DNA from: Fidelibacterota bacterium
GTDB taxonomy: Bacteria > Fidelibacterota > SORT01
DNA: 52,943 nucleotides
NCBI GenBank assembly: GCA_022567655.1
Contig: JADFGO010000002.1
Span: forward strand, 1-52,943
Direction: 5' to 3'
The notes beneath the pieces were generated by a model, which was not told the DNA's origin, searched no databases, and was given only the letters and a program-made list of their open reading frames with translations. Positions 6,244-46,300 of the stretch are shown here, piece after piece. The position numbers were made by a program, and so were the translations under genes. The number at the start of each line of letters is the position of its first letter. Position 1 is the first letter of the stretch.

Positions 6244-7656
6244 TTAAGTGTTAAGCCGAGACCGAATTGTCATCCACCGGAAGATAAAAAAAAGCATGAA
6301 CGACACAGCAAGCCCGGGGAATATCGGCTCTACCCCAAAAAGATAAAGCGGTTCAAGTTGGGAACCATTGTAGAAACCGATCATTAGCAAAACCGAAGAT
6401 ATGGTGAATGCGGAAAGCATTAACCAGAGTGTGTGATTCCCCAGTAAGCGATAGCGGGGGAAATATGTCGATACGACAGGAATCAGCAGTGCCGGTATAA
6501 GCACGCTCCCGAACGAGTACCATATCCCGATTACGGAGGGAATCAGGTATGAAATCACAATCGCTGTGATCAGCGTTATTATAATACCTATCTTTGTATT
6601 TGATACGCTGTCGTCCGCTCTATTTTTTCTGAGTCTCCAGATCAGATCTCTTCCGATGGTAGCTCCGGATATCAGCGTAAGACTGTCCACAGTCGACATA
6701 ATTGTTGACAGCATTCCGATAAAAAACAGACCCTTGGCGACGGGCGGTAGTAATGCCTCAGCCAAAAGCGGGTATGCCTGAACGGGACTTATTCCGGGCA
6801 GCAATGCTCTGGCATAAAGTCCGGCGCTGATGGTCATAAAGTCAAATAATACCCAGAAACCAATGGCGATGAATATCCCTTTGCGGGCTACGGATGGATT
6901 TTTCGCGGCTGCGCAGCGCTGGTGGAATGATGGATCCACAAGCGTCCACAGGGCTATAAAGAACCAGACGATTATGTATTCTATACTAATACTACCTTGC
7001 CATGTGAGATGAAGATTGGGGACGGATGAAGAAATATAACCTATTCCGCCGAGCTCACTGACGGCAAAAAACAGCAGCATAACGAACCCGGAGTACATCA
7101 AAACGAATTGCAATTTATCCGTTTGAGCCACGGCGCTGAATCCGCCGGAATAAATATATACTACCGAAAGCAGAGCCCCTATCACTATTGAGAGACCGAA
7201 GCTCCACCCGAATATAAGCTGAAGCAGAACTCCGAGCATCAAGACATAAGGCGCCGGTGAAGAAATGAGGAATATCAACAGGCTGCCGAATATGCCTGTG
7301 GCTTTCCCGAAACTTTCATACAATCTGTCGGGCATTGTAAGAGATTCTCCCTCTCGAATTTTACCCGCAAGCAAGACAGCGAAGAGAGCTGAAAAAATAT
7401 AAAAGGGAAAACCGAGAACAATCCAGGTGGAAACCCCGTGTTGATAAGAAAATTCGCCTATCCCCAATATGCCCCCGTAAAAAGTGACAACAAGCGTAGC
7501 CACGAATCCGGGTACCGTCAGGCGTCTTCCAGCCAAAAGAAAGTTCTCGGGATCGTTGTTTTTCTTCCTTCCTGCCCGAAATCCCATGAATACGACTGTC
7601 GAAAAATACAGGAATATCAGGATCATGTCGATTCCGCTGAAGGTGATTTTATCCAA
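6244..7656 (-). CDS. Sodium:solute symporter family (SSF) transporter, last gene of the TPP-riboswitch operon (candidate thiamine/precursor importer, ThiV-like)
   Basis: 470-aa multi-pass membrane protein with an SSF-like N-terminus (TM1 followed by NFLLAGRRL). The TTG start at 7656 overlaps the thiN stop; an alternative ATG lies at 7626. Confidence 0.8.
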   Translation of the reverse strand: MDKITFSGIDMILIFLYFSTVVFMGFRAGRKKNNDPENFLLAGRRLTVPGFVATLVVTFYGGILGIGEFSYQHGVSTWIVLGFPFYIFSALFAVLLAGKIREGESLTMPDRLYESFGKATGIFGSLLIFLISSPAPYVLMLGVLLQLIFGWSFGLSIVIGALLSVVYIYSGGFSAVAQTDKLQFVLMYSGFVMLLFFAVSELGGIGYISSSVPNLHLTWQGSISIEYIIVWFFIALWTLVDPSFHQRCAAAKNPSVARKGIFIAIGFWVLFDFMTISAGLYARALLPGISPVQAYPLLAEALLPPVAKGLFFIGMLSTIMSTVDSLTLISGATIGRDLIWRLRKNRADDSVSNTKIGIIITLITAIVISYLIPSVIGIWYSFGSVLIPALLIPVVSTYFPRYRLLGNHTLWLMLSAFTISSVLLMIGFYNGSQLEPLYLFGVEPIFPGLAVSFMLFFIFRWMTIRSRLNT

Positions 7657-8305
7657 CTATCGGTGTACCATCGCTTTTTTCGAATAGTTTGAACAGAAAT
7701 AATCCGTCTCCGAATACCTTGACAGTGACAGATGGTTCCGAGACTTGATTGCTGACTCCGAAGGGACCGAACGATTGCAGTTCCCCGTCAAGCTCCCACT
7801 TTAATCCTTTTGTGGTAACCCAGGATGAACCACCGAGAACCATGAGTGAAATTTTTCTTCCTATTTCCGCCTCAAAAGTCAGGTCCTTCAGCACGAATAC
7901 AGTTTCCGCGAAGTCGTCAAGGATAGTGAGACGGGCAAGTTGATCGTACCGCTTCAGCAAGCTCAGATTCGCGAGCGAATGGTCGATCTTTTTTCCTGTC
8001 GCGCCGAGGAGAACTATCTCATCCATACCCTGAGATATTTCATACTCGATCGCCTTCATACTGTCGGTCGTGTTCTCATCGGTATCTTCGATAATTTCTG
8101 TTTTATTGAATTTCTTAACGGTCGCCGGAAGAATAGAATCCATATCTCCGATAATAAGAACGGGTGAGTAACCGGTGTCAGTCAGGTGATTAGCTCCCCC
8201 GTCCGCGCAGACTATTCTTTCGGAGGAATCGAGCAGAGCCTTAATTCTATCATTGAGAATGAAGTCTCCGTTTCCAATAACAACCGACTTTTGTATGTCG
8301 GTCAA
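7649..8305 (-). CDS. thiN: Thiamine pyrophosphokinase
   Basis: 218 aa with TPK motifs CADGGANHL, IIGDMDS, TDSMKAIEY and GATGKKIDHSLANL. It overlaps the upstream receptor gene by 4 nt. Confidence 0.88.
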   Translation of the reverse strand: MTDIQKSVVIGNGDFILNDRIKALLDSSERIVCADGGANHLTDTGYSPVLIIGDMDSILPATVKKFNKTEIIEDTDENTTDSMKAIEYEISQGMDEIVLLGATGKKIDHSLANLSLLKRYDQLARLTILDDFAETVFVLKDLTFEAEIGRKISLMVLGGSSWVTTKGLKWELDGELQSFGPFGVSNQVSEPSVTVKVFGDGLFLFKLFEKSDGTPIVG

Positions 8306-10734
8306 AACTTGAGCGTGACAGTTATATATGCGTTTCTTAAGGCGGCGGGAATATATTCGGGAATAAATCCCTGATAGTAGTACACGTAGCCGCTGGTCTC
8401 ATATTTCGTATCAAGAATATTATTGACGTTAAGCTGGATTCGGATAGGAATAGCGTTTCCGGCGTTGTTATAGTCATAACTCAGGAAGAAATTAACAATC
8501 CTATGTGCGTTTATCGATAAATCAGCTGTTCCGGAATTGTCAAGAAACTGCCCACCCACAAACCGTGTATAAAGGAACGATGAGATTGTACTTCCTCTGT
8601 ACCCTACCTTAATTCCCGCGAGGTAATCGGGAAAGCCGGAAATTTTATTGCCGGAACGGTCTATCGGAAACAGCTTCCCTTCGATGTCATATCCCGGTTC
8701 ATTGTAACTGACAAAGTAATTATCGTTGAGACTAAAATTTCCGGAGATATACGCCCCGTTCGTTAAAGACCAGGAAGCATCAGCCTCAATTCCCCGGTGA
8801 ATAGACTTCACGGCGTTGTAGTACAGTCTTAATCCGATATCGTCCACCTGTCCGGTCGGAACTATCTCATCCCTGAAGTCCATATAGAATAAATTAAGTT
8901 TCAAAAATGCATTTGAGTTCCGCCATGCGCCTCCGAGTTCGTAATCATAGAGGGTTTCTTGTCCTATAAGCGGTTTGCTGAAGTTCGGTGTGCCGTCCGG
9001 GTTTAATTCAAAACGAGGTACGGCATAAGGGTCGTCGGCGTCATAAATGTCCGCGTCTCTCGGCTCGCGATTGGCAACGGAGAAATTGACAAATGCCGTT
9101 ATGCTGCTGTTCAGCCTGCGATTAATACCCATTCGGGGTGTGAGAAAGTTATAGTTCACACTGTATTCATAATCGTTTTTGAAGGCGCCTATCGGGTTCT
9201 GATCGAAATCATAGCCGATATGCTGATATTGAACGTCGAACATCAGGTCTGTATTTTCGTCTATACCGTATACTACGTGAGTGTAAATAGTGGAGGATTG
9301 TTTACCGGTTTCGTACCCGTAATATTTGTTGTTAGGCGGCGTTTGATTGTTCTCTTTTACCCAAATAACTTCACCCCAGTGCTTTGCGTTATAGAAGCTG
9401 AACTCTGCTCCCAATGCCAGCGACCAGCCGGCTTTCGTGAAAGTAAATCTGGGGAGCCATCCCCATTGTGATTTATCAACGTTCTTCTTTCGCACGAGGT
9501 CAGTGGTTTCAACACCAACGAGGTTATACTCGACAGGATTTCTGTCAGATTTATAATCCTGAAAGAAACCGTCGCCCTTTACATGGAAGAAGGTGTTCTC
9601 GAATCTGATTTGTTCATTTATTCTCCAGTCGTTGATTAACTGATAGTGGCTTTGTAAAAAATCGTCCACCTGCTCGTCGAAGAATTCATTTTCTTCGCTT
9701 GGCGAATAAAAATTTGAGCGGCGCAGATCGTCATCATCTAAGAGATCCTTACCGATACCGAACCATGCGAATTTTGCCACCAATGGTCCACCGAATACGT
9801 TAAACGTGGTCGTCATATCACGGTCATAGCGGCTGCCGGATAAAAAATACGACCATGAATCGACGCCGGAGTCTGTCCGGTATCCGTCCGTTCGTAATTT
9901 GGAAAATCTTCCGTAGGCGGAATACTTGTTTTCAATGTAGCCGGTTCCAAAAGAAAAATTTAATCTTCGCGTATTGTAACTACCGGACGTTCCTGAAAGA
10001 GTAATTCCCGGTTCTGTGCCGGCGCCTTTCGTCAGTATATTAATCGAACCTCCGATAGCGGCAGTCCCATATAGTGAGTTACCGACGCCTCTTTGAACCT
10101 GAACGTCTTGTATATTGGCGGAGAGGTCTGCTATATCATAAAAATAAGTCACGTGGTCTTCCGGGTCGTTCAGCGGAACGCCATTCAGGGTTACGGCAAC
10201 TCTTGTGGCGTCAAAACCCCTGATTTTTATCTCCGTGTAACCCATTCCGCTTCCGGTCATGGAATAGGAGTAGAGGCTCGGGATTTCGTCGAGGAGCATC
10301 GGGAGTTCCTGAGAGGAATATTTTTCGGTCAGCGTCCTTGAATCCACATTACTGAATGCTACCGGGGTTTTCCCGCTGATCGCCCGGGTTGCGCTCACCA
10401 CAACGTTTTCTCCTTCGAGTATCCTCGGATAAAGAGAAAAGAGCACAGAAAGAGCGGTCTGTCCGACCGTTATCTTTTGTTTCCGGACATCGTACCCGAT
10501 CACACCCGCGCTTATGGTGAATTCTCCGGCCGGCACGCCGCGAATAATGAATTGACCGCTTTCATTTGTGGCGGCGCCGAACGTAGTGCCTTCTATGAGT
10601 ACGTTAGCTCCAAAAATAGGCTTGTTATCTATGGCGTTTCTTACGCTGCCTGATATTTCACTGCTGATTTGAGCGTTGGAGAATATTGGAACGAGTGTAA
10701 TAATTACTCCGGTGATGATATTCAGATAATTCAT
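8302..10734 (-). CDS. TonB-dependent outer-membrane receptor (thiamine-regulated)
   Basis: It has the signal peptide MNYLNIITGVIITLVPIFSNAQ, a CarboxypepD_reg-like N-domain, a plug, and a beta-barrel ending YITVTLKF. The ORF-track start at 10809 would translate the riboswitch. The ATG at 10734 has GGAGGGAGG 4 nt upstream. Confidence 0.9.
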   Translation of the reverse strand: MNYLNIITGVIITLVPIFSNAQISSEISGSVRNAIDNKPIFGANVLIEGTTFGAATNESGQFIIRGVPAGEFTISAGVIGYDVRKQKITVGQTALSVLFSLYPRILEGENVVVSATRAISGKTPVAFSNVDSRTLTEKYSSQELPMLLDEIPSLYSYSMTGSGMGYTEIKIRGFDATRVAVTLNGVPLNDPEDHVTYFYDIADLSANIQDVQVQRGVGNSLYGTAAIGGSINILTKGAGTEPGITLSGTSGSYNTRRLNFSFGTGYIENKYSAYGRFSKLRTDGYRTDSGVDSWSYFLSGSRYDRDMTTTFNVFGGPLVAKFAWFGIGKDLLDDDDLRRSNFYSPSEENEFFDEQVDDFLQSHYQLINDWRINEQIRFENTFFHVKGDGFFQDYKSDRNPVEYNLVGVETTDLVRKKNVDKSQWGWLPRFTFTKAGWSLALGAEFSFYNAKHWGEVIWVKENNQTPPNNKYYGYETGKQSSTIYTHVVYGIDENTDLMFDVQYQHIGYDFDQNPIGAFKNDYEYSVNYNFLTPRMGINRRLNSSITAFVNFSVANREPRDADIYDADDPYAVPRFELNPDGTPNFSKPLIGQETLYDYELGGAWRNSNAFLKLNLFYMDFRDEIVPTGQVDDIGLRLYYNAVKSIHRGIEADASWSLTNGAYISGNFSLNDNYFVSYNEPGYDIEGKLFPIDRSGNKISGFPDYLAGIKVGYRGSTISSFLYTRFVGGQFLDNSGTADLSINAHRIVNFFLSYDYNNAGNAIPIRIQLNVNNILDTKYETSGYVYYYQGFIPEYIPAALRNAYITVTLKF

Positions 10735-10741
10735 TTTGCCT

Positions 10742-10814
10742 CCCTCCGCTGGTATTATCCAGATCAGGTTGTAAGGGTATGTTCTCAGGCGGTATGGAGG
10801 AACCGCCACCCCTG
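10742..10814 (-). promoter_or_regulatory. TPP (THI-box) riboswitch
   Basis: The minus-strand RNA reads GGGGUGGCGGUUCCUCCAUACCGCCUGAGAACAUACCCUUACAACCUGAUCUGGAUAAUACCAGCGGAGGGAGG. This contains the conserved CUGAGA and ACCUGAUCUGGAUAAUACCAGCG blocks, colinear with E. coli thiM. The 3' end merges with the SD of the receptor gene. Confidence 0.95.
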
Positions 10815-10827
10815 TTGTTTCTCTGAT

Positions 10828-10866: not shown

Positions 10867-11092
10867 TGTGCGGTCGGGACTTGCCCTCTTTTCAAAGGAG
10901 GGGATACGAAACCTCCTCCCTCGAGGGAGGTGTCCCGAAGCTTCGGGACGGACCTGCCCGACTAATGTCAGGCGGGGGGTGTGATTCTGATGTTTTCTTC
11001 AAAAATATCGTCACCGAACGATTACACCCCTCGTCCCGGCAGCTGCCGGGACACTCCCCTCAAGGGGAGAGAATCTGAGGTGCAGTCGGGGG
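10867..11092. repeat. Composite hairpin-mosaic element, copy A (right end truncated)
   Basis: Colinear with 11559-11812. The 88-nt core 10949-11036 matches 11654-11741 at 87/88 positions. It starts with TGTGCGGTCGGGACTTGCCC. Confidence 0.9.
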
Positions 11093-11179: not shown

Positions 11180-11533
11180 TCAGCGATTATAGACAAACGT
11201 AACGACTTCAGGGAGGAGCTTAAAAGCGATTATCAATCCGTAAGAACTCCAGAGCACTGCCTTGCGCCAGTTACGTCGTTCAACGGATCTGCCCTCATCG
11301 GAAATTTTGACGGAGGAAGAGGCAGTTCCGTTTTTTCCATATTCCATGTAGTAGGCTGCACCGAGCAGTAGGATTGTAGCGGTTACATTATAAATTCTGT
11401 TCTCGGCAAACCACGGACCGACGTTGAGTCCCCCGAGCCCGATCAGGTTCAAAGTAGCGGGACCTACGCAGCAGAGCGTGGACATGAATCCCGTGACTAT
11501 CGCCGCCGTCGATGCAAACAAACTCCAGATCAT
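11180..11533 (-). CDS. MerT-like small membrane protein (N-terminal CC motif)
   Basis: 117 aa. FMSTLCCVGPATLNLIGLGG..PW aligns with MerT ILASTCCLGPLVLVALGFSGAW, and length and TM layout match MerT (116 aa). The cytoplasmic-loop Cys pair of MerT is absent. Confidence 0.55.
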   Translation of the reverse strand: MIWSLFASTAAIVTGFMSTLCCVGPATLNLIGLGGLNVGPWFAENRIYNVTATILLLGAAYYMEYGKNGTASSSVKISDEGRSVERRNWRKAVLWSSYGLIIAFKLLPEVVTFVYNR

Positions 11534-11558: not shown

Positions 11559-11812
11559 TGTGCGAGTCAGGGCTTGCCCGACTTTACAAAGGAGGGGAAA
11601 CGAAACCTCCTCCCTCGAGGGAGGTGTCCCGTCCCGAAGTTTCGGGATCGGGACGGACCTGCCCGACTAATGTCAGGCGGGGGGTGTGATTTTGATGTTT
11701 TCTTCAAAAATATCGTCACCGAACGATTACACCCCTCGTCCGGCTGAGCCGGACACTCCCCTCAAGGGGAGAGAATCTGAGGTGCGGGTCGGGACAAACC
11801 CTGACTGCCACA
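11559..11812. repeat. Composite hairpin-mosaic element, copy B (complete, with inverted terminal units)
   Basis: It is a direct repeat of copy A. The termini GTGCGAGTCAGGGCTTGCCCGAC (11560-11582) and GTCGGGACAAACCCTGACTGCCAC (11788-11811) are inverted repeats of each other. The element begins 25 nt upstream of the merT-like start codon. Confidence 0.9.
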
Positions 11813-18412: not shown

Positions 18413-19379
<967 letters not shown>

Positions 19380-21894: not shown

Positions 21895-22592
21895 ATCGGC
21901 GGCCGGGCAAAGGCCCGGCTCCTGACGGGCTGCCGGATTCCCGCATATCTGTTCTCCTCCCTTGAGGGAGGTGTCCCGAAGCTTCGGGACGGCCACTCCC
22001 CTCGAGGGGAGAGGATTATCCTCCCTCTTTTCAAGGAGGGGGAAGGGCGTGGTTGTCTTCATTAATGCGGTCAGGGCAAGCCCTGACTCGCACGGTGCTG
22101 TCATTATGGGGTGTGAATACCGTCGGAGGCTGGGGAACGTTAAAGCCCATCCGTCTGGACGGCCAGCCCAACATCGATTTGGCGGGCAAAGCCGGGCAGG
22201 ACATTTTTGTCAGCTCTTCTGTCCGGATTTCTCAGAATGACAGCATTTGGTGTGGCGCGGTCACCCTGAACGCATGTCCGACTGCTTGCCAGGCGGGAAG
22301 TCGAAGGGTGACTGCGTTAATATGCTGAGGATAGATCGCAGACACTGATTCTCAATCATAAATGGCTGGGCTTTTATAAGGGAAATTACTCCTAAATCCC
22401 CTCTTTGATGGGATATGTAGGGGAGGGTTTGTAACCCTCCCGAAATATGCGGGCTGGTTATAAACCAGCCCCTACGGTGCAGTTACAAATAACTCGCAGA
22501 AAGCAGGAGTTGTCCATGTGTAATTCCCCACTTTTTCCCGGACAATTCCCCGCTTTCTTCGGGGTAAACGTGAATTGTCCCTACAGTTGGGG
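21895..22592. repeat. Intergenic hairpin-unit cluster 4 (largest mosaic array, ~700 bp)
   Basis: Contains at least 12 hairpin units that also occur in the other clusters. See findings for unit coordinates. Confidence 0.9.
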
Positions 22593-22599
22593 TTGAAGG

Positions 22600-23328
22600 T
22601 TATTCTTTGCTGAAGACCCAGCTGCCGTCGGCTCTTTCGATTCCCTTATTCGGATTCATGAACACGAGCTTGAGTTTCCCATTTTCAGGCACCCAGGGGG
22701 TGCCGTCAAATTTACTTTTCGGGAGAAGCAATCCGAACTGAACTTTTTTGGTTTGCGCCTTCCGCCAGTTTTGGCGGACGGGAGGTTCATTCTCGGGCGA
22801 TAAAGTGACTATTAGCGGAACTTTTTTCGGTTCGTACTGATTTTCGTCTTCATCTTCCACAAATATGACCCACCGATCCGGGCTGAGATATTCCTTTGCA
22901 AAAGTCGTCCTCATGTAAATCCATATTAGATTATTGTTCTTCAGATCATAATCAGTGTTATATCTTATAAGCAACGAATCAGACTCTAACATGTCCATTC
23001 CAAGTGTGTTTTGATAAAATTCTCCGGCGCTTCGGAGTACCTCATCCGTCATCATTGTAGCGCTTATCAGCAATGGGAAACCCGGATATACGGAAGATGC
23101 CGCACCCGGTTTGCCAATCCCCGTGAAAAATGCGTCACTGTTTCCGGTCATCCGGACTCCGGTGCCGAACAGGATGGTATTTTTCGAAATTGCTTCGATA
23201 TACTCTGTAGCTTCCGATTTGTAGATAAATCCGTTTTGTGACGAAGTTTCGACAGCGGTATAGCATCCGAGTGAAAAACCGGATAAAATTAAACAAACGA
23301 TGCCCAAACGATAGCATTCTTTTGTCAT
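22600..23328 (-). CDS. Hypothetical secreted/lipoprotein
   Basis: 242 aa with an N-terminal hydrophobic signal ending in Cys (LSGFSLGC). The ATGA overlap with the upstream gene suggests translational coupling. I recognise no motif. Confidence 0.6.
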   Translation of the reverse strand: MTKECYRLGIVCLILSGFSLGCYTAVETSSQNGFIYKSEATEYIEAISKNTILFGTGVRMTGNSDAFFTGIGKPGAASSVYPGFPLLISATMMTDEVLRSAGEFYQNTLGMDMLESDSLLIRYNTDYDLKNNNLIWIYMRTTFAKEYLSPDRWVIFVEDEDENQYEPKKVPLIVTLSPENEPPVRQNWRKAQTKKVQFGLLLPKSKFDGTPWVPENGKLKLVFMNPNKGIERADGSWVFSKE

Positions 23329-26701: not shown

Positions 26702-26796
26702 GTGGCAGTCAGGGCAAGCCCTGACTCGCACTTATAATTCTGCAGTTTAGAAGTCATGGGACGCAGATCTGCGTCCCCTACTTTCGTCCAGACGAA
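26702..26796. repeat. Intergenic hairpin-unit cluster 5 (solo units)
   Basis: Contains GTGGCAGTCAGGGCAAGCCCTGACTCGCAC (26702-26731), GGGACGCAGATCTGCGTCCCCTAC (26758-26781, GTAG head on the minus strand) and TTCGTCcaGACGAA (26783-26796). Confidence 0.85.
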
Positions 26797-26843
26797 GAAG
26801 ATGTTACTTTTGAGGTAGAAGTAGACGGAGATTAAGTCCTTTT

Positions 26844-41277: not shown

Positions 41278-41548
41278 GTGCGAGTTAGGGCTTGCCCTGA
41301 CCGCAATCCCTTACACACCCTCCCGAAATAGAATCGGGATAAACTTCCTCCGGAAGGAGTTCCTTCGGAACACCCCTCTTATTAGAGGAGAATAATCGGT
41401 ATTTTTTATTGGAAAACCACCCCTTGTGTTCCCCTCCTTGGGAAGGAGGGGATATGTAGGGACAACTCAAGAGTTGTCCACAGGTATTTACCCGCTTTTT
41501 TCCGGGCGATTCCCCGCTTTCTTCGGGGTAAACGTGAATCGCCCCTAC
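41278..41548. repeat. Intergenic hairpin-unit cluster 6
   Basis: It starts with GTGCGAGTTAGGGCTTGCCCTGAC and ends with the 45-nt two-hairpin unit at 41504-41548. It also contains AACCACCCCTTGTGTTCCCCTCCTTG..AAGGAGGGGA (also at 42243-42283). Confidence 0.9.
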
Positions 41549-41553
41549 AATAA

Positions 41554-42009
41554 CTAAATATTTTCGAACGTCTTGATAAGGATTTCCTTCAGCATTCTTC
41601 TTTCGCGGACTGAGAGTATCGATTCAAATTTATCTGTGACCTCCCGCTCTATTCGGGGGATCATCTTATCGGCGAGGTTCCTTCCCTTGTGAGTCAGATT
41701 TACCCTGTGGAAGCGTTTATCTTCCGGCGGGCTTTCGCGCGAAATGAATTCCTTTTCCAGCATTCTAAGGAGAACTCCGGACGTATTCCCTTTCGACCAC
41801 TGGAGTTTTTCCGTTATCCCCTTTTGAGTCAGCCCGTCGGGATTTACCCAGAGGAGCGCAAGAACCTCAAATTGAGGCGACGTGAGATTATATCTCTTGT
41901 AGGTATTGGCGAGTTTAGACTGCATCGCTGATTCGACGCGTGAGAGGTTTACCCACGCGAGCAGAGAATCGCTCACTTTTCTTCTTACCTGATTCTTTAG
42001 TAATTCCAT
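41554..42009 (-). CDS. MarR-family transcriptional regulator
   Basis: 151 aa with a winged-helix region (LTSPQFEVLALLW..GLTQKGITEKLQWSKGNTSGVLLRMLEKEFISR). Confidence 0.88.
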   Translation of the reverse strand: MELLKNQVRRKVSDSLLAWVNLSRVESAMQSKLANTYKRYNLTSPQFEVLALLWVNPDGLTQKGITEKLQWSKGNTSGVLLRMLEKEFISRESPPEDKRFHRVNLTHKGRNLADKMIPRIEREVTDKFESILSVRERRMLKEILIKTFENI

Positions 42010-42042: not shown

Positions 42043-42088
42043 CGTTTTGTCAAGTAAAATTTCTTTTAATATCCCTGTTACATATTAT
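42043..42088 (+). repeat. 46-bp direct repeat, copy 1 (marR-proximal promoter region)
   Basis: CGTTTTGTCAAGTAAAATTTCTTTTAATATCCCTGTTACATATTAT matches 42555-42600 at 42/46 positions. It contains a TTGACA -35 for marR on the minus strand. Confidence 0.9.
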
Positions 42089-42098
42089 GAAAAATATA

Positions 42099-42547
42099 GT
42101 GCGAGTCGGGGCTTGCCCTGACCGGTGAACAGGTGAGTCAGCATCATCGAAATCCATGACTGTCGCAAAGAGCGTGAACGCCCTTCGAGTAATAATCGTT
42201 GATCATATAACCCAGCCATAAATGGCTGAGCTAAAGAAATGAGAACCACCCCTTGTGTTCCCCTCCTTGCGTAAGGAGGGGAAGATTTATCCCATCTTCG
42301 ATGTGGGATACGTAGGGGAGGGTTTATTAACCCTCCCGCGTTAGAGGGCAGGCCCGCCTGGCCAGCTCGGCATCGGTCTGACGGGCAAGAAGTCGGGCAG
42401 GTCACAGACCTGCCCCTACCTTGACACACCCCGTTCGGCTGAGCCGGATGACCGGCACTCTTAGGTGGCGCAGTCACCGAAGGTGCCTGCGTTATACTAT
42501 TGTGAAAAGATCGCAGGCATCACGTTGCGTCATGATGACTGCGCCAC
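42099..42547. repeat. Intergenic hairpin-unit cluster 7 (flanked by the 46-bp direct repeats)
   Basis: It starts with GTGCGAGTCGGGGCTTGCCCTGAC and ends with the inverted GTGG-headed doublet at 42465-42547. It shares more than 6 units with clusters 3, 4 and 6. Confidence 0.9.
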
Positions 42548-42554
42548 ATTATAG

Positions 42555-42600
42555 CGTTTTCTCAAGTAAAATTTCTTTTAATATCCCTGTTGCGTGTTAT
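42555..42600 (+). repeat. 46-bp direct repeat, copy 2 (yjbQ-proximal promoter region)
   Basis: CGTTTTCTCAAGTAAAATTTCTTTTAATATCCCTGTTGCGTGTTAT. Its 3' end supplies TTGCGT, followed by 17 nt and TAGATT upstream of yjbQ. Confidence 0.9.
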
Positions 42601-43544: not shown

Positions 43545-43709
43545 TATTGATTTAACATAGCTTTCTGAAAATCAGCATCCGCTAAACTGTGAATTATTGA
43601 ACCGCCCGCCATGATATATTCCTTGACTCCCTGAATTCTTGAGAATAAGTTTTACTTTATTAGAGGCTGATTTTTAATTCCCAATATTTTAAATCTTTAG
43701 AGGAAGAGC

Positions 43710-45269
43710 ATGAAAGATAAGTACGACGTAGTAGTCATAGGAGCGGGTATCGGCGGACTCTCCGCGGCTGCCCTGACGGCAATGAACGGGAAGAGTGTCC
43801 TCGTTGTAGATCAGAGACCTTCTCCAGGAGGCGTATGCCACAGTTTTGAGCGTGAAGGGTACACATTCGACGTAGGACCTCACCTTCTATCGGGCTGCGG
43901 ACCTAACGGCGTGGTCACAAAACACTTAAGCGATCTCGGCGTTATAGACAGCGTTGAATTTCTTGATATAAATCCGCTGGCAAATTTGAGACTGCCGGAT
44001 TTCAATGTCGAGGTACCGCCCGACACGAACGGGTTCATCGAAAACCTATCCAAACTGTTTCCGGAAACTCGATCGGGCGTCGAGATGTTGTTCAGGGAGA
44101 TGCAGCAGACATATGAAGAGATGGGCGATCTGCCGTCAACTTTCAGCTTGTGGGAATTCCTGAAAGTCCCGGTTACCCATCCGGTGTTTATGAAATATCC
44201 GAGCCAGACTTACGACACTATGGCGGAAGATTTCGTCAGAGATGAAAAGGTGAACGCCGCCATTAGCGGGTTATGGTCATACTTCGGAATTCCCCCTTCG
44301 AAGATGTCCGCACTCTTCTGGGCGGCGGTTATGATGGGATACTTAAATGACGGAGGACATATCGCAAAAGGCGGCAGCGGAAAGCTGGGAGAAGCCTACG
44401 TCAAGGGACTAAATAAACATGGCGGTGAATTTCTTCCAAACCATCAGGTAGAGGAAATAATAGTCGAGAACGGTGAGGCTGTCGGAGTAAGGCTGCGATC
44501 TGTTCAGGGTCGTTGGGATGAAGTGGGAAAACATATCGGGAACGAAAAAAACGGGGATACATTCTCGGTCAGGGCTGATGCTGTTGTATCCAACGCGGAT
44601 GCTTTGACGACGTTCGAAGGCATGCTGCCCTCCGGATCCGTCAGCGAAAAATTTATCAATAAACTCGAGACTCAGGAAGAGACGCCTTCGCTATTTAAAA
44701 TAAGTCTCGGGGTGAAGATGGAGCTGCCTGATGATATGAGGTATCATGACACCGTGATATATGACTCATACGATATGGATGAGGTCTTCAAAAAAATGAA
44801 AGAGACGGTTCCCGACGCGCCGGTGGATATCACGATTCCGAGCCTTACTGACAGCTCGCTTGCACCCGAAGGGGGGCATGTGATTCATTTGTGGAACTAC
44901 GCTCCCTACATGGATGGAGATTCATGGGATTCAATGGCGAATGATGCAGCGGATAAGATGATAAAATCCACGGAAAAATATCTGCCCGGTTTGTCGGATT
45001 CCATCGAAGTTAAACTTATCATGACCCCCGCTTCTATACAGCGGTATGCGTTGACCAAAAACGGCGCACCGTACGGATGGACATTTTCTCCCGGGCAAAT
45101 GGGGATCAACAGGTTGCAGCCGAGGACACCGATTAAGAATCTGCTTCTTGCGGGTCATTGGACGACGCCGGGCGCGGGGATCGCGGGAGTGGCGATGTCG
45201 GGTGAAAACACTGCAACAATATTGTTAAACGAAACCAACAAACGATATTTCTGGAGAAAGAGCGCGTAG
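43710..45269 (+). CDS. Phytoene-desaturase-family FAD-dependent oxidoreductase (CrtI/CrtD-like)
   Basis: 519 aa with the dinucleotide-binding motif YDVVVIGAGIGGLSAAA and a C-terminal LLLAGHWTTPGAGIAG. Confidence 0.8.
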   Translation: MKDKYDVVVIGAGIGGLSAAALTAMNGKSVLVVDQRPSPGGVCHSFEREGYTFDVGPHLLSGCGPNGVVTKHLSDLGVIDSVEFLDINPLANLRLPDFNVEVPPDTNGFIENLSKLFPETRSGVEMLFREMQQTYEEMGDLPSTFSLWEFLKVPVTHPVFMKYPSQTYDTMAEDFVRDEKVNAAISGLWSYFGIPPSKMSALFWAAVMMGYLNDGGHIAKGGSGKLGEAYVKGLNKHGGEFLPNHQVEEIIVENGEAVGVRLRSVQGRWDEVGKHIGNEKNGDTFSVRADAVVSNADALTTFEGMLPSGSVSEKFINKLETQEETPSLFKISLGVKMELPDDMRYHDTVIYDSYDMDEVFKKMKETVPDAPVDITIPSLTDSSLAPEGGHVIHLWNYAPYMDGDSWDSMANDAADKMIKSTEKYLPGLSDSIEVKLIMTPASIQRYALTKNGAPYGWTFSPGQMGINRLQPRTPIKNLLLAGHWTTPGAGIAGVAMSGENTATILLNETNKRYFWRKSA

Positions 45270-45296
45270 ATCGCTCCCAAATATAGAGAGGAACTG

Positions 45297-46220
45297 ATGG
45301 AAACAAGCAAATTTAAATTATATCTCGGTGAAGTGAGGGCTCCGTTCTTTACCGCTACTATCATACCTGTGATATTAGGCTCGGTTATAGCATGGAGTTC
45401 GTTTGACACGTTCAGCTGGGGATATTTCTTTTTGACCCTCTTCGGGGCAATTCTTATTCAAGCCGGAGCGAACGTCGCAAATGATTATTGGGATCATCGT
45501 TCAGGGAATGACGAAGCGAATACAGAATTTCTCCGTCCCTACACCGGAGGTTCGAGAATGATCCAAAAAGGTCTGCTTGCTCCGAAAGAGGTACTGACAG
45601 AAGCTCTGCTTCTGTTGGCAGCCGGCAGCCTTATCGGTTTATTCCTGACTTACATGAAGGGGATGGAAATATTATACATGGGGTTATTCGGCGTGCTTTC
45701 CGGTTATTTCTATACGGCGCCTCCGTTTAAACTCGTCTTTCGAGGTATAGGGGAAATGTTCATCGGCATAGATTTCGGAATTTTACTGACTGTGGGTTCT
45801 TTCTATGTACAAACGGGGTATTTCGCCTTAGAACCGTTGGTCGCCTCACTTCCGATTGCTATGCTGGTTGCCGGTATTCTATATATCAACGAATTTCAGG
45901 ATTATAAGGCGGACAAGGAAGTCGGCAAAAATCATCTCGTTGCCCGAATGGGAAGAAAACGCGCGGCGGTCGGTTACGGATACATAATGTGGCTCACGTA
46001 CGTTTTTATAGTGATAGGCGTGATACTCGGTATGATCTCTCCGTGGACGCTGCTCGGCTTGATCACAATACCCATCGCCGTTAAGGCGGTCCGGACGGCT
46101 AAAGTACATTACGATGATTACCTAAAGCTGGCACCCGCAAACGTCGGCACTATAATGAGCCATCTCCTTACCGGGTTGATGATGACCATAGGCTATATGA
46201 TCGATAGGTGGGTATCGTAA
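45297..46220 (+). CDS. UbiA-family prenyltransferase (MenA-like Asp-rich motifs)
   Basis: 307-aa multi-pass protein with NVANDYWDHRSGND and YINEFQDYKADKEVGKNHLVARMG. Confidence 0.8.
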   Translation: METSKFKLYLGEVRAPFFTATIIPVILGSVIAWSSFDTFSWGYFFLTLFGAILIQAGANVANDYWDHRSGNDEANTEFLRPYTGGSRMIQKGLLAPKEVLTEALLLLAAGSLIGLFLTYMKGMEILYMGLFGVLSGYFYTAPPFKLVFRGIGEMFIGIDFGILLTVGSFYVQTGYFALEPLVASLPIAMLVAGILYINEFQDYKADKEVGKNHLVARMGRKRAAVGYGYIMWLTYVFIVIGVILGMISPWTLLGLITIPIAVKAVRTAKVHYDDYLKLAPANVGTIMSHLLTGLMMTIGYMIDRWVS

Positions 46221-46300
46221 TAAAACTTTGTTACGCCTGATTCAATGAATAGAATTCAAAGGCGTATGAGCGGTACACCCGGTTATCAGATCTGAATAAA

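Follow-up and report, generated by a model that had tools for sequence, protein, structure and literature searches.

A 45-nt intergenic hairpin of an uncultured FCB-group bacterium is probably a long, bulged GTAG-tagged REP element

Genomic context of the 45-nt units

The window, i.e. the whole stretch of 52,943 nucleotides that was analyzed, encodes a protein with a T9SS sorting domain, and the nearest named relatives of its RNase G (50-58% identity) belong to Fidelibacterota, KSB1, Calditrichia and Marinimicrobia. Two copies of a 45-nt unit are located at positions 22540-22584 (copy 1) and 41504-41548 (copy 2), 18,964 nt apart, where an earlier sequence-only reading had placed them. The window contains exactly two occurrences of the 31-nt core ATTCCCCGCTTTCTTCGGGGTAAACGTGAAT, where shuffled sequences predict none. 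Both copies follow the 3' end of a minus-strand gene. Copy 1 starts 15 nt after the stop codon of ORF 22600..23328, which encodes a 242-aa protein, and copy 2 starts 5 nt after the stop codon of a MarR gene (41554..42009).

At the gathering score, Rfam matched nothing at the 45-nt units, and its only hit in the window was a TPP riboswitch elsewhere (RF00059, 63 bits, positions 10724-10823, minus strand). This riboswitch is positioned upstream of an 835-aa ORF (8302..10809), after which comes a gene for thiamin pyrophosphokinase (7649..8305). Relaxed thresholds (E<10) also returned nothing credible at the window units or at the Udaeobacter copies described below. A search of both strands showed no terminator-like site overlapping the units. 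The stem is followed by GGGAAAAAG on the minus and by CTACAG on the plus strand, and an intrinsic (Rho-independent) terminator was rejected because no T-run follows the hairpin. A change in GC skew near 24 kb was considered as a replication-origin signal and rejected, as the skew follows coding-strand composition.

Structure of the unit and differences between its copies

On either strand, as DNA or as RNA, the unit is predicted to fold into one interrupted helix, composed of an 8-bp outer stem, an 8-nt one-sided bulge, a 5-bp GC inner stem and a 7-nt loop. The description as a two-hairpin unit in the sequence-only reading was therefore abandoned. An adjacent C-G can form a ninth pair, which extends the outer stem to 9 bp. 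On the opposite strand, the CTAC "head" of the unit reads as a GTAG tag that immediately precedes the stem, and the minus strand is therefore the informative orientation. In this orientation the unit reads GTAG-GGRCRATT-CACGTTTA-CCCCG-aagaaag-CGGGG-AATYGYCC, with CACGTTTA as the 8-nt bulge. Copy 1 is GTAG-GGACAATT-CACGTTTA-CCCCG-aagaaag-CGGGG-AATTGTCC; copy 2 shares the sequence of bulge and inner stem and has the outer stem GGGCGATT/AATCGCCC. The predicted single-stranded DNA folds of the GTAG-tagged hairpins have z-scores of -2.5 to -5.8, and the predicted RNA fold is stable as well (z-scores of -1.4 to -3.1).

The two copies are mismatched at unit positions 3, 5, 37 and 39 only. As proposed before, these four mismatches represent two compensated A-T to G-C swaps in the outer stem. 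The probability that four random substitutions make up two whole complementary pairs was derived analytically and ranges from ~6e-5 (uniform substitutions) to 3e-4 (transition-biased), thus about 1e-4. None of the 29 unit positions outside the outer stem differs, so that inner stem, loop, bulge and head are the same in both copies, whereas eight differences occur in the 36 nt upstream (Fisher p=0.007). The conservation of about 30 nt upstream of the unit, which had also been pointed out, is real and falls within an 82-nt repeat (D5) of 85% identity.

The GTAG-tagged hairpin family

The window contains 50 perfect hairpins whose stems measure 8 bp or more, and GTAG is found directly 5' of eight of them, where ~0.4 were expected and the runner-up tetramer reaches three. 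These eight GTAG-preceded hairpins, the two long units and six short perfect hairpins, are all intergenic and occupy four loci in 53 kb, with more at other loci in relatives. All eight stems comprise 9 bp and begin with GG, the short hairpins have loops of 2-4 nt, and unit length ranges from 24 to 45 nt. Three head-to-head dimers (22417/22475, 41456/41548 and 42312/42419) with the GTAG tags pointing outward account for six of the eight, and a relic of one further partner was detected at 22507-22515.

Copy 2 is arranged head-to-head with a short perfect hairpin on the plus strand (41456..41479; GTAG GGACAACTC aa GAGTTGTCC) across a 24-nt linker. The segment next to copy 1 (22504..22539), part of repeat D5, consists of a linker and the 3' arm of a lost partner hairpin, GAGTTGTCC at 22507-22515. 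This accounts for the conserved stretch upstream of copy 1, which combines a linker with the surviving arm of an inverted partner. A single base distinguishes the stem of copy 1 (GGACAATTC) from that of the short partner of copy 2 (GGACAACTC). In the dimer at 22417, the left half (22417..22441, plus strand; GTAG GGGAGGGTT tgt AACCCTCCC) and the right half (22451..22475, minus strand; GTAG GGGCTGGTT tat AACCAGCCC) are joined by a 9-nt linker. The relation between the GGGAGGGTT and GGGCTGGTT hairpins (22421-22441 and 22451-22471) is as the sequence-only reading described it, with two adjacent positions changed in both arms. The third dimer, with a 57-nt linker, combines 42312..42337 (plus strand; GGGAGGGTT tatt AACCCTCCC) with 42395..42419 (minus strand; GGGCAGGTC tgt GACCTGCCC) and sits between divergent genes, in a promoter region. 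The single short hairpin at 26758..26781 (minus strand; GTAG GGGACGCAG at CTGCGTCCC) lies inside a 57-nt module (26747-26803).

Variation between close relatives

The DNA of locus L002 is 97.5% identical to the window, yet the cluster at 21915-22590, including the 45-nt unit, is missing from it wholly or almost wholly. The spacer between the 242-aa gene and the RNase G gene measures 287 nt in L002 and 797 nt in the window. Between its genes for L27 and lactate/malate dehydrogenase, L002 has a 215-nt hairpin-rich insertion of its own (L002 5070-5287), in place of just 4 nt in the window (19368-19371). In L003, whose RNase G shares 80% identity, the spacer comprises 159 nt and contains no such hairpins.

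Four states were found at the site 3' of MarR, i.e. the long unit in the window, a truncated long unit in L012, a dimer of short GTAG hairpins in L014 and nothing in L013. The truncation in L012 is due to a deletion that joins the inner hairpin of the long unit to a similar hairpin ~180 nt away. The spacers at this site are 38-50 nt long in L015 and L016, which are more distantly related (MarR identity 74-77%). The 57-nt module around the hairpin at 26781 recurs with 95% identity at the MarR site of L014, which is a different locus. Some copies show decay of one arm (L012 and L014, and also the metagenome copy L004 described below). The comparisons between relatives indicate that, within a species, the GTAG hairpins behave as dispersed elements subject to gain, loss and recombination.

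Two further differences between the relatives were noted around the MarR gene. A hairpin cluster of 466 nt is flanked on both sides by a 46-nt direct repeat (D12, 91% identity; 42043-42088 and 42555-42600) of the MarR/YjbQ promoter region. The cluster is absent from L012 and L014 and partial in L013, and its insertion therefore duplicated flanking sequence. L012 also lacks a block at ~43550-46300 of the window, except for a 49-nt fragment. This block encodes an amine-oxidase/phytoene-desaturase-like protein (43710..45269) and a UbiA prenyltransferase (45297..46220).

Copies in Candidatus Udaeobacter

Metagenomes were scanned with a pattern in which the inner stem, the bulge and CTAC were fixed and both outer-arm sequences were free. 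Five contigs, representing four distinct loci, harbor the architecture of the long unit with another outer stem (GGGCGCAG/CTGCGCCC); the invariance of inner stem, bulge and tag in these copies is imposed by the search pattern. The scan also returned two CRISPR arrays (L006 and L010) and one chance match. The RarA protein of L005 is 95% identical to an NCBI protein named Candidatus Udaeobacter sp. (Verrucomicrobiota). The other contigs with a long unit resemble L005 in GC content and have flanking motifs in common with it, the taxonomic assignment through RarA applying to L005 only. The neighbors of the metagenome units are unrelated housekeeping genes and, where this could be resolved, the units start 18 and 29 nt after a stop codon, GTAG first.

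At the site orthologous to the long form of L005, a short form (GTAG GGGTGCtgccggtTGCGCCC) is present in L018 and none in L017. The stem of the long unit in L005 recurs there in a short hairpin. Together, these observations indicate that the long and short forms are variants of one element. Near the RarA locus, L018 carries a fragment of an IS110-family (DEDD) transposase (L018 7369-7863), which is unrelated to the hairpins.

A scan of a genome collection, made with a pattern ending in AAT and thus including part of the variable outer stem, gave only a chance match in a coding region (L001). Nothing relevant was obtained from a scan of viral contigs or from plasmid BLAST. A literature search for the motif string led to unrelated primers and guide RNAs only.

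Covariation of the stems

As the sequence-only reading had proposed, further copies were aligned and covariation was assessed. The alignment contained six long units, two from the window and four of the Udaeobacter type from metagenomes, and pairs were counted on the given structure. Standard pairs occupy 98.7% of the cells, and five of the eight outer pairs are changed on both sides. None of 500 shuffles reached the observed covariation score, and pairing fell to 33-54% when the partner columns were slid. This evidence covers the outer stem, as the inner helix was fixed by the search pattern. The copy in L004 contains one G-T pair and one A-C mismatch. Wobble pairs number three on the GTAG strand and two on the other; they favor neither strand and therefore do not separate an RNA from a single-stranded DNA.

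In a wider set of nine GTAG hairpins (the eight of the window and one Udaeobacter unit), all 81 stem pairs are Watson-Crick pairs, with two to four pair types at each of positions 3-9. Since pairing is complete despite up to four pair types per position, the folded single strand is indicated to be what is maintained. The sequence-only reading held that the folded form, rather than the primary sequence, is selected or recognized. This interpretation is supported, as the stem also covaries in the wider sample, with the qualification that primary sequence matters too: none of the nine hairpins departs from the GTAG tag or from the two G-C pairs that open the stem.

Compensated changes could also arise from the maintenance of palindromes at the DNA level, with template switching or hairpin-directed repair copying one arm onto the other, so that the "compensatory" changes would be a mutational by-product free of functional selection. 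This is consistent with stems that are unusually perfect although their sequences differ widely, with clusters that are rearranged by deletions between similar small hairpins, as at the L012 junction, and with duplications of flanking sequence such as D12. However, it leaves unexplained the one-sided invariant GTAG tag, the fixed 9-bp stem and the conserved unpaired 8-nt bulge, as well as the same architecture in a second phylum, and the decayed single-arm copies in L004 and L014 show that such correction is not automatic. We consider this explanation highly unlikely.

Comparison with known REP elements

The features of the hairpins correspond to those of REP elements. According to Di Nocera et al. 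(2013; PMC3733652), GTAG REPs carry an unpaired GTAG at one end of a 6-13-bp stem, are mostly located less than 20 bp from the 3' ends of ORFs, form head-to-head dimers and occur as several types per genome. Their sub-families differ by alternative complementary stem residues, and their loops can be complex and self-complementary, with internal pairing over as much as 27 bp (PMC3733652). For Corneloup et al., a REP is a 20-50-nt palindrome with GTAG in front of it, the long bulged forms making up group 2 and the short perfect forms group 3 (PMC8266576). GTAG (or GTGG) is expected 0-2 nt 5' of a REP hairpin, and in the window GTAG stands directly 5' of the stem (in the Udaeobacter copies this was required by the pattern). 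The units of 24-45 nt have a fully paired basal stem of 9 bp, within the REP range of 7-20 bp. The hairpins are also extragenic, with the long units just 3' of ORFs, form inverted pairs and show alternative complementary stem residues. The 45-nt unit is thus probably a long bulged GTAG-tagged REP, coexisting with short perfect-palindrome GTAG-GG REPs in an uncultured FCB-group bacterium. The class of element is known, and the compensated variation of its stem is a published property rather than a new phenomenon.

Quentin et al. used a shape rule in which REPs have either a loop of 2-5 nt (short forms) or a second stem attached through a bulge of 1-3 nt (long forms) (PMC6006769). The six short units follow this rule with their loops of 2-4 nt, whereas the 45-nt unit, with its 8-nt bulge and 7-nt loop, does not. 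The rule is a search filter derived from 66 mostly proteobacterial families and not a definition (PMC6006769). Because of this departure, the 45-nt unit is regarded as an atypical new family inside the GTAG REP super-family, from which the shape rule does not exclude it. The stem sequences also vary more than is typical of a single REP family.

Members of the GTAG super-family such as GTAG-3 of enterobacteria and GTAG-14 of Bradyrhizobium (PMC3733652) share with the window units the unpaired GTAG, the stem length, the nested paired loop, dimers, sites 3' of ORFs and coexisting types. In contrast, the stem, bulge and loop sequences of the window units are new, the 8-nt one-sided bulge is unusually large, and long and short units share a stem type. 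The group 2 REPs of the E. coli REPtron (PMC8266576, PMC3479197) are likewise long, preceded by GTAG and interrupted by an unpaired zone in the stem, but their bulge consists of two mismatched pairs instead of eight one-sided nucleotides. The six short units match the group 3 REPs of Stenotrophomonas (SMAG) and Pseudomonas, namely the S. maltophilia REPs with 8-bp stems and 3-nt loops, and the inverted-pair layout of REPIN doublets. A REPIN doublet folds into one long hairpin, whereas the window dimers do not, because their two halves differ in stem.

The subterminal hairpins of IS200/IS605 elements, single-stranded DNA hairpins with an adjacent guide or tag that are recognized by a Y1 HuH transposase, provide the mechanistic model for REPs. 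The window units differ from them in being solitary or short dimers, with no transposase or TnpB gene between paired ends. The end of an IS200/IS605 or TnpB element was also considered and rejected because the neighbors are housekeeping genes.

Proposed mechanism of spread

The known activity of TnpA-REP offers an explanation for the pattern of differences. In vitro, TnpA-REP acts on the single-stranded REP strand and not on its complement, requires GTAG, tolerates complementary swaps in the stem and is impaired by stem mismatches; the group 2 enzyme also requires the unpaired bulge (PMC8266576). In group 2 experiments the unpaired state and pairing outweigh stem sequence, and this mechanism therefore predicts compensated pairs as seen in the 45-nt unit. 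By analogy with E. coli, Stenotrophomonas and Marinomonas, the GTAG strand would fold as single-stranded DNA, for example during replication, and a RAYT/TnpA-REP protein (HuH Y1 nuclease) would bind it via the GTAG tag, the intact stem and the unpaired bulge. The enzyme would then cut and rejoin the REP, so that copies spread and turn over. Only copies that are still able to fold would stay substrates, which would explain why compensated pairs are the differences that persist, with no change in tag, bulge and inner stem. The transposase step is one that we infer from these other systems. No RAYT gene was found in the window or the fetched loci, 220 kb in total, by Pfam searches of 20 window ORFs and HuH...Y scans of six-frame translations.

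The negative RAYT search in these 220 kb could also point to an RNA element selected by the host and independent of a dedicated transposase, in which an mRNA 3'-end hairpin stabilizes the transcript or modulates termination or translation and copies arise by recombination. The position of the units is in line with such a role. The long units lie 5-29 nt past the stop codons of genes for the 242-aa protein, MarR, an M28 peptidase and an SDR protein, and the gene that ends 4-29 nt upstream has the GTAG strand as its sense strand at the four resolvable long-form loci and at two orthologous sites with other forms. The stable predicted RNA fold and the G-T pairs in imperfect copies fit as well, and Di Nocera et al. 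argued that many REPs act as RNA (PMC3733652). However, the genes upstream are unrelated to one another, even near-identical strains differ in whether they have a unit, and short REPs occur in both orientations, including the divergent promoter region at 42312-42419. Furthermore, the hairpin is not followed by the T-run of a terminator, and the wobble pairs show no preference for the GTAG strand. We also know of no role in RNA for a conserved GTAG tag. An RNA element of this kind is therefore regarded as unlikely.

The identification as a REP leaves room for a function of the transcript. The agreement of the GTAG strand with the sense strand of the upstream gene suggests that the long-form hairpin is probably transcribed and part of the 3' UTR. 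REPs of E. coli block 3' exonucleases, and by analogy the transcribed hairpin could do the same as a secondary role. A host-level role at mRNA 3' ends is thus plausible and compatible with the REP identification.

The inner hairpin

The inner part of the long unit, TTCCCCGC...CGGGGTAAAC, resembles type I-E CRISPR repeats, in that a CCCCG...CGGGG hairpin is followed by (A)TAAAC. The unit might accordingly be a solitary CRISPR-repeat-like hairpin that binds a Cas6-type protein, and the metagenome pattern did retrieve two genuine CRISPR arrays with the repeat ...CCCCGCGCATGCGGGGTAAAC (L006 and L010). The window contains no array, however, but two copies 19 kb apart with no regular spacers, and no Rfam CRISPR-DR model matched even at E<10. 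The hairpin is moreover enclosed in a GTAG-tagged outer stem, and the resemblance results largely from the search pattern and the GC-rich stem. The likeness is probably superficial, and a CRISPR-related function appears extremely improbable. The repeats of the L006 and L010 arrays, ...GTCGATCCCCGCGCATGCGGGGTAAAC, which are presumably type I-E-like, resemble the inner hairpin of the unit together with TAAAC.

Strains differ at orthologous sites in whether they carry the 25-nt interior of the long REP, i.e. the CACGTTTA bulge and the CCCCG/CGGGG hairpin, or a short loop in its place. Candidatus Udaeobacter and the unrelated FCB-group bacterium have the same bulge and inner stem, both of which had been fixed by the metagenome pattern. 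The interior might be a separable module that has moved between phyla and is recognized by a so far undescribed subclass of RAYT or by some other protein that binds hairpins, and it might itself insert into or excise from REP loops. We offer this as a speculation that is distinctly unlikely to hold.

Probable REPs in new host lineages

As elements of this class have long been known, the 45-nt unit is of an ordinary type, found in a new host. The points of modest interest are the new host lineages, the bulged architecture common to two phyla and the allelic long and short forms. The findings add two hosts to the range of GTAG-tagged REPs, namely a lineage of uncultured FCB-group bacteria and Candidatus Udaeobacter, which ranks among the most abundant bacteria in soil; no paper mentioning REPs in Udaeobacter was found in the literature search. 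They also provide a natural example of long bulged and short perfect REPs with one tag and stem type that interchange at the same chromosomal site, which bears on the relation between the REP types of group 2 and group 3 transposases. For annotation, they are a warning that striking covariation in intergenic hairpins need not mean a new structured RNA.

Other hairpin repeats in the window

A second family of hairpin repeats, GTGCGA-GTCAGGGC-TT-GCCCTGAC, has a stem that is conserved rather than variable. Four near-exact copies are present in the window against zero expected (22070-22093 and 26708-26731 on the minus strand, 41278-41301 and 42099-42122 on the plus strand), diverged copies occur at 11560 and 11782, and the family was found in L014 too. 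In addition, a ~200-nt chain of small GC hairpins is directly duplicated at 10884-11083 and 11578-11785, ~700 nt apart, with up to 99% identity over 94 nt. The duplicated chain flanks a 117-aa ORF (11180..11533) that has no Pfam match, and one of its hairpins recurs in the strain-specific insertion of L002.
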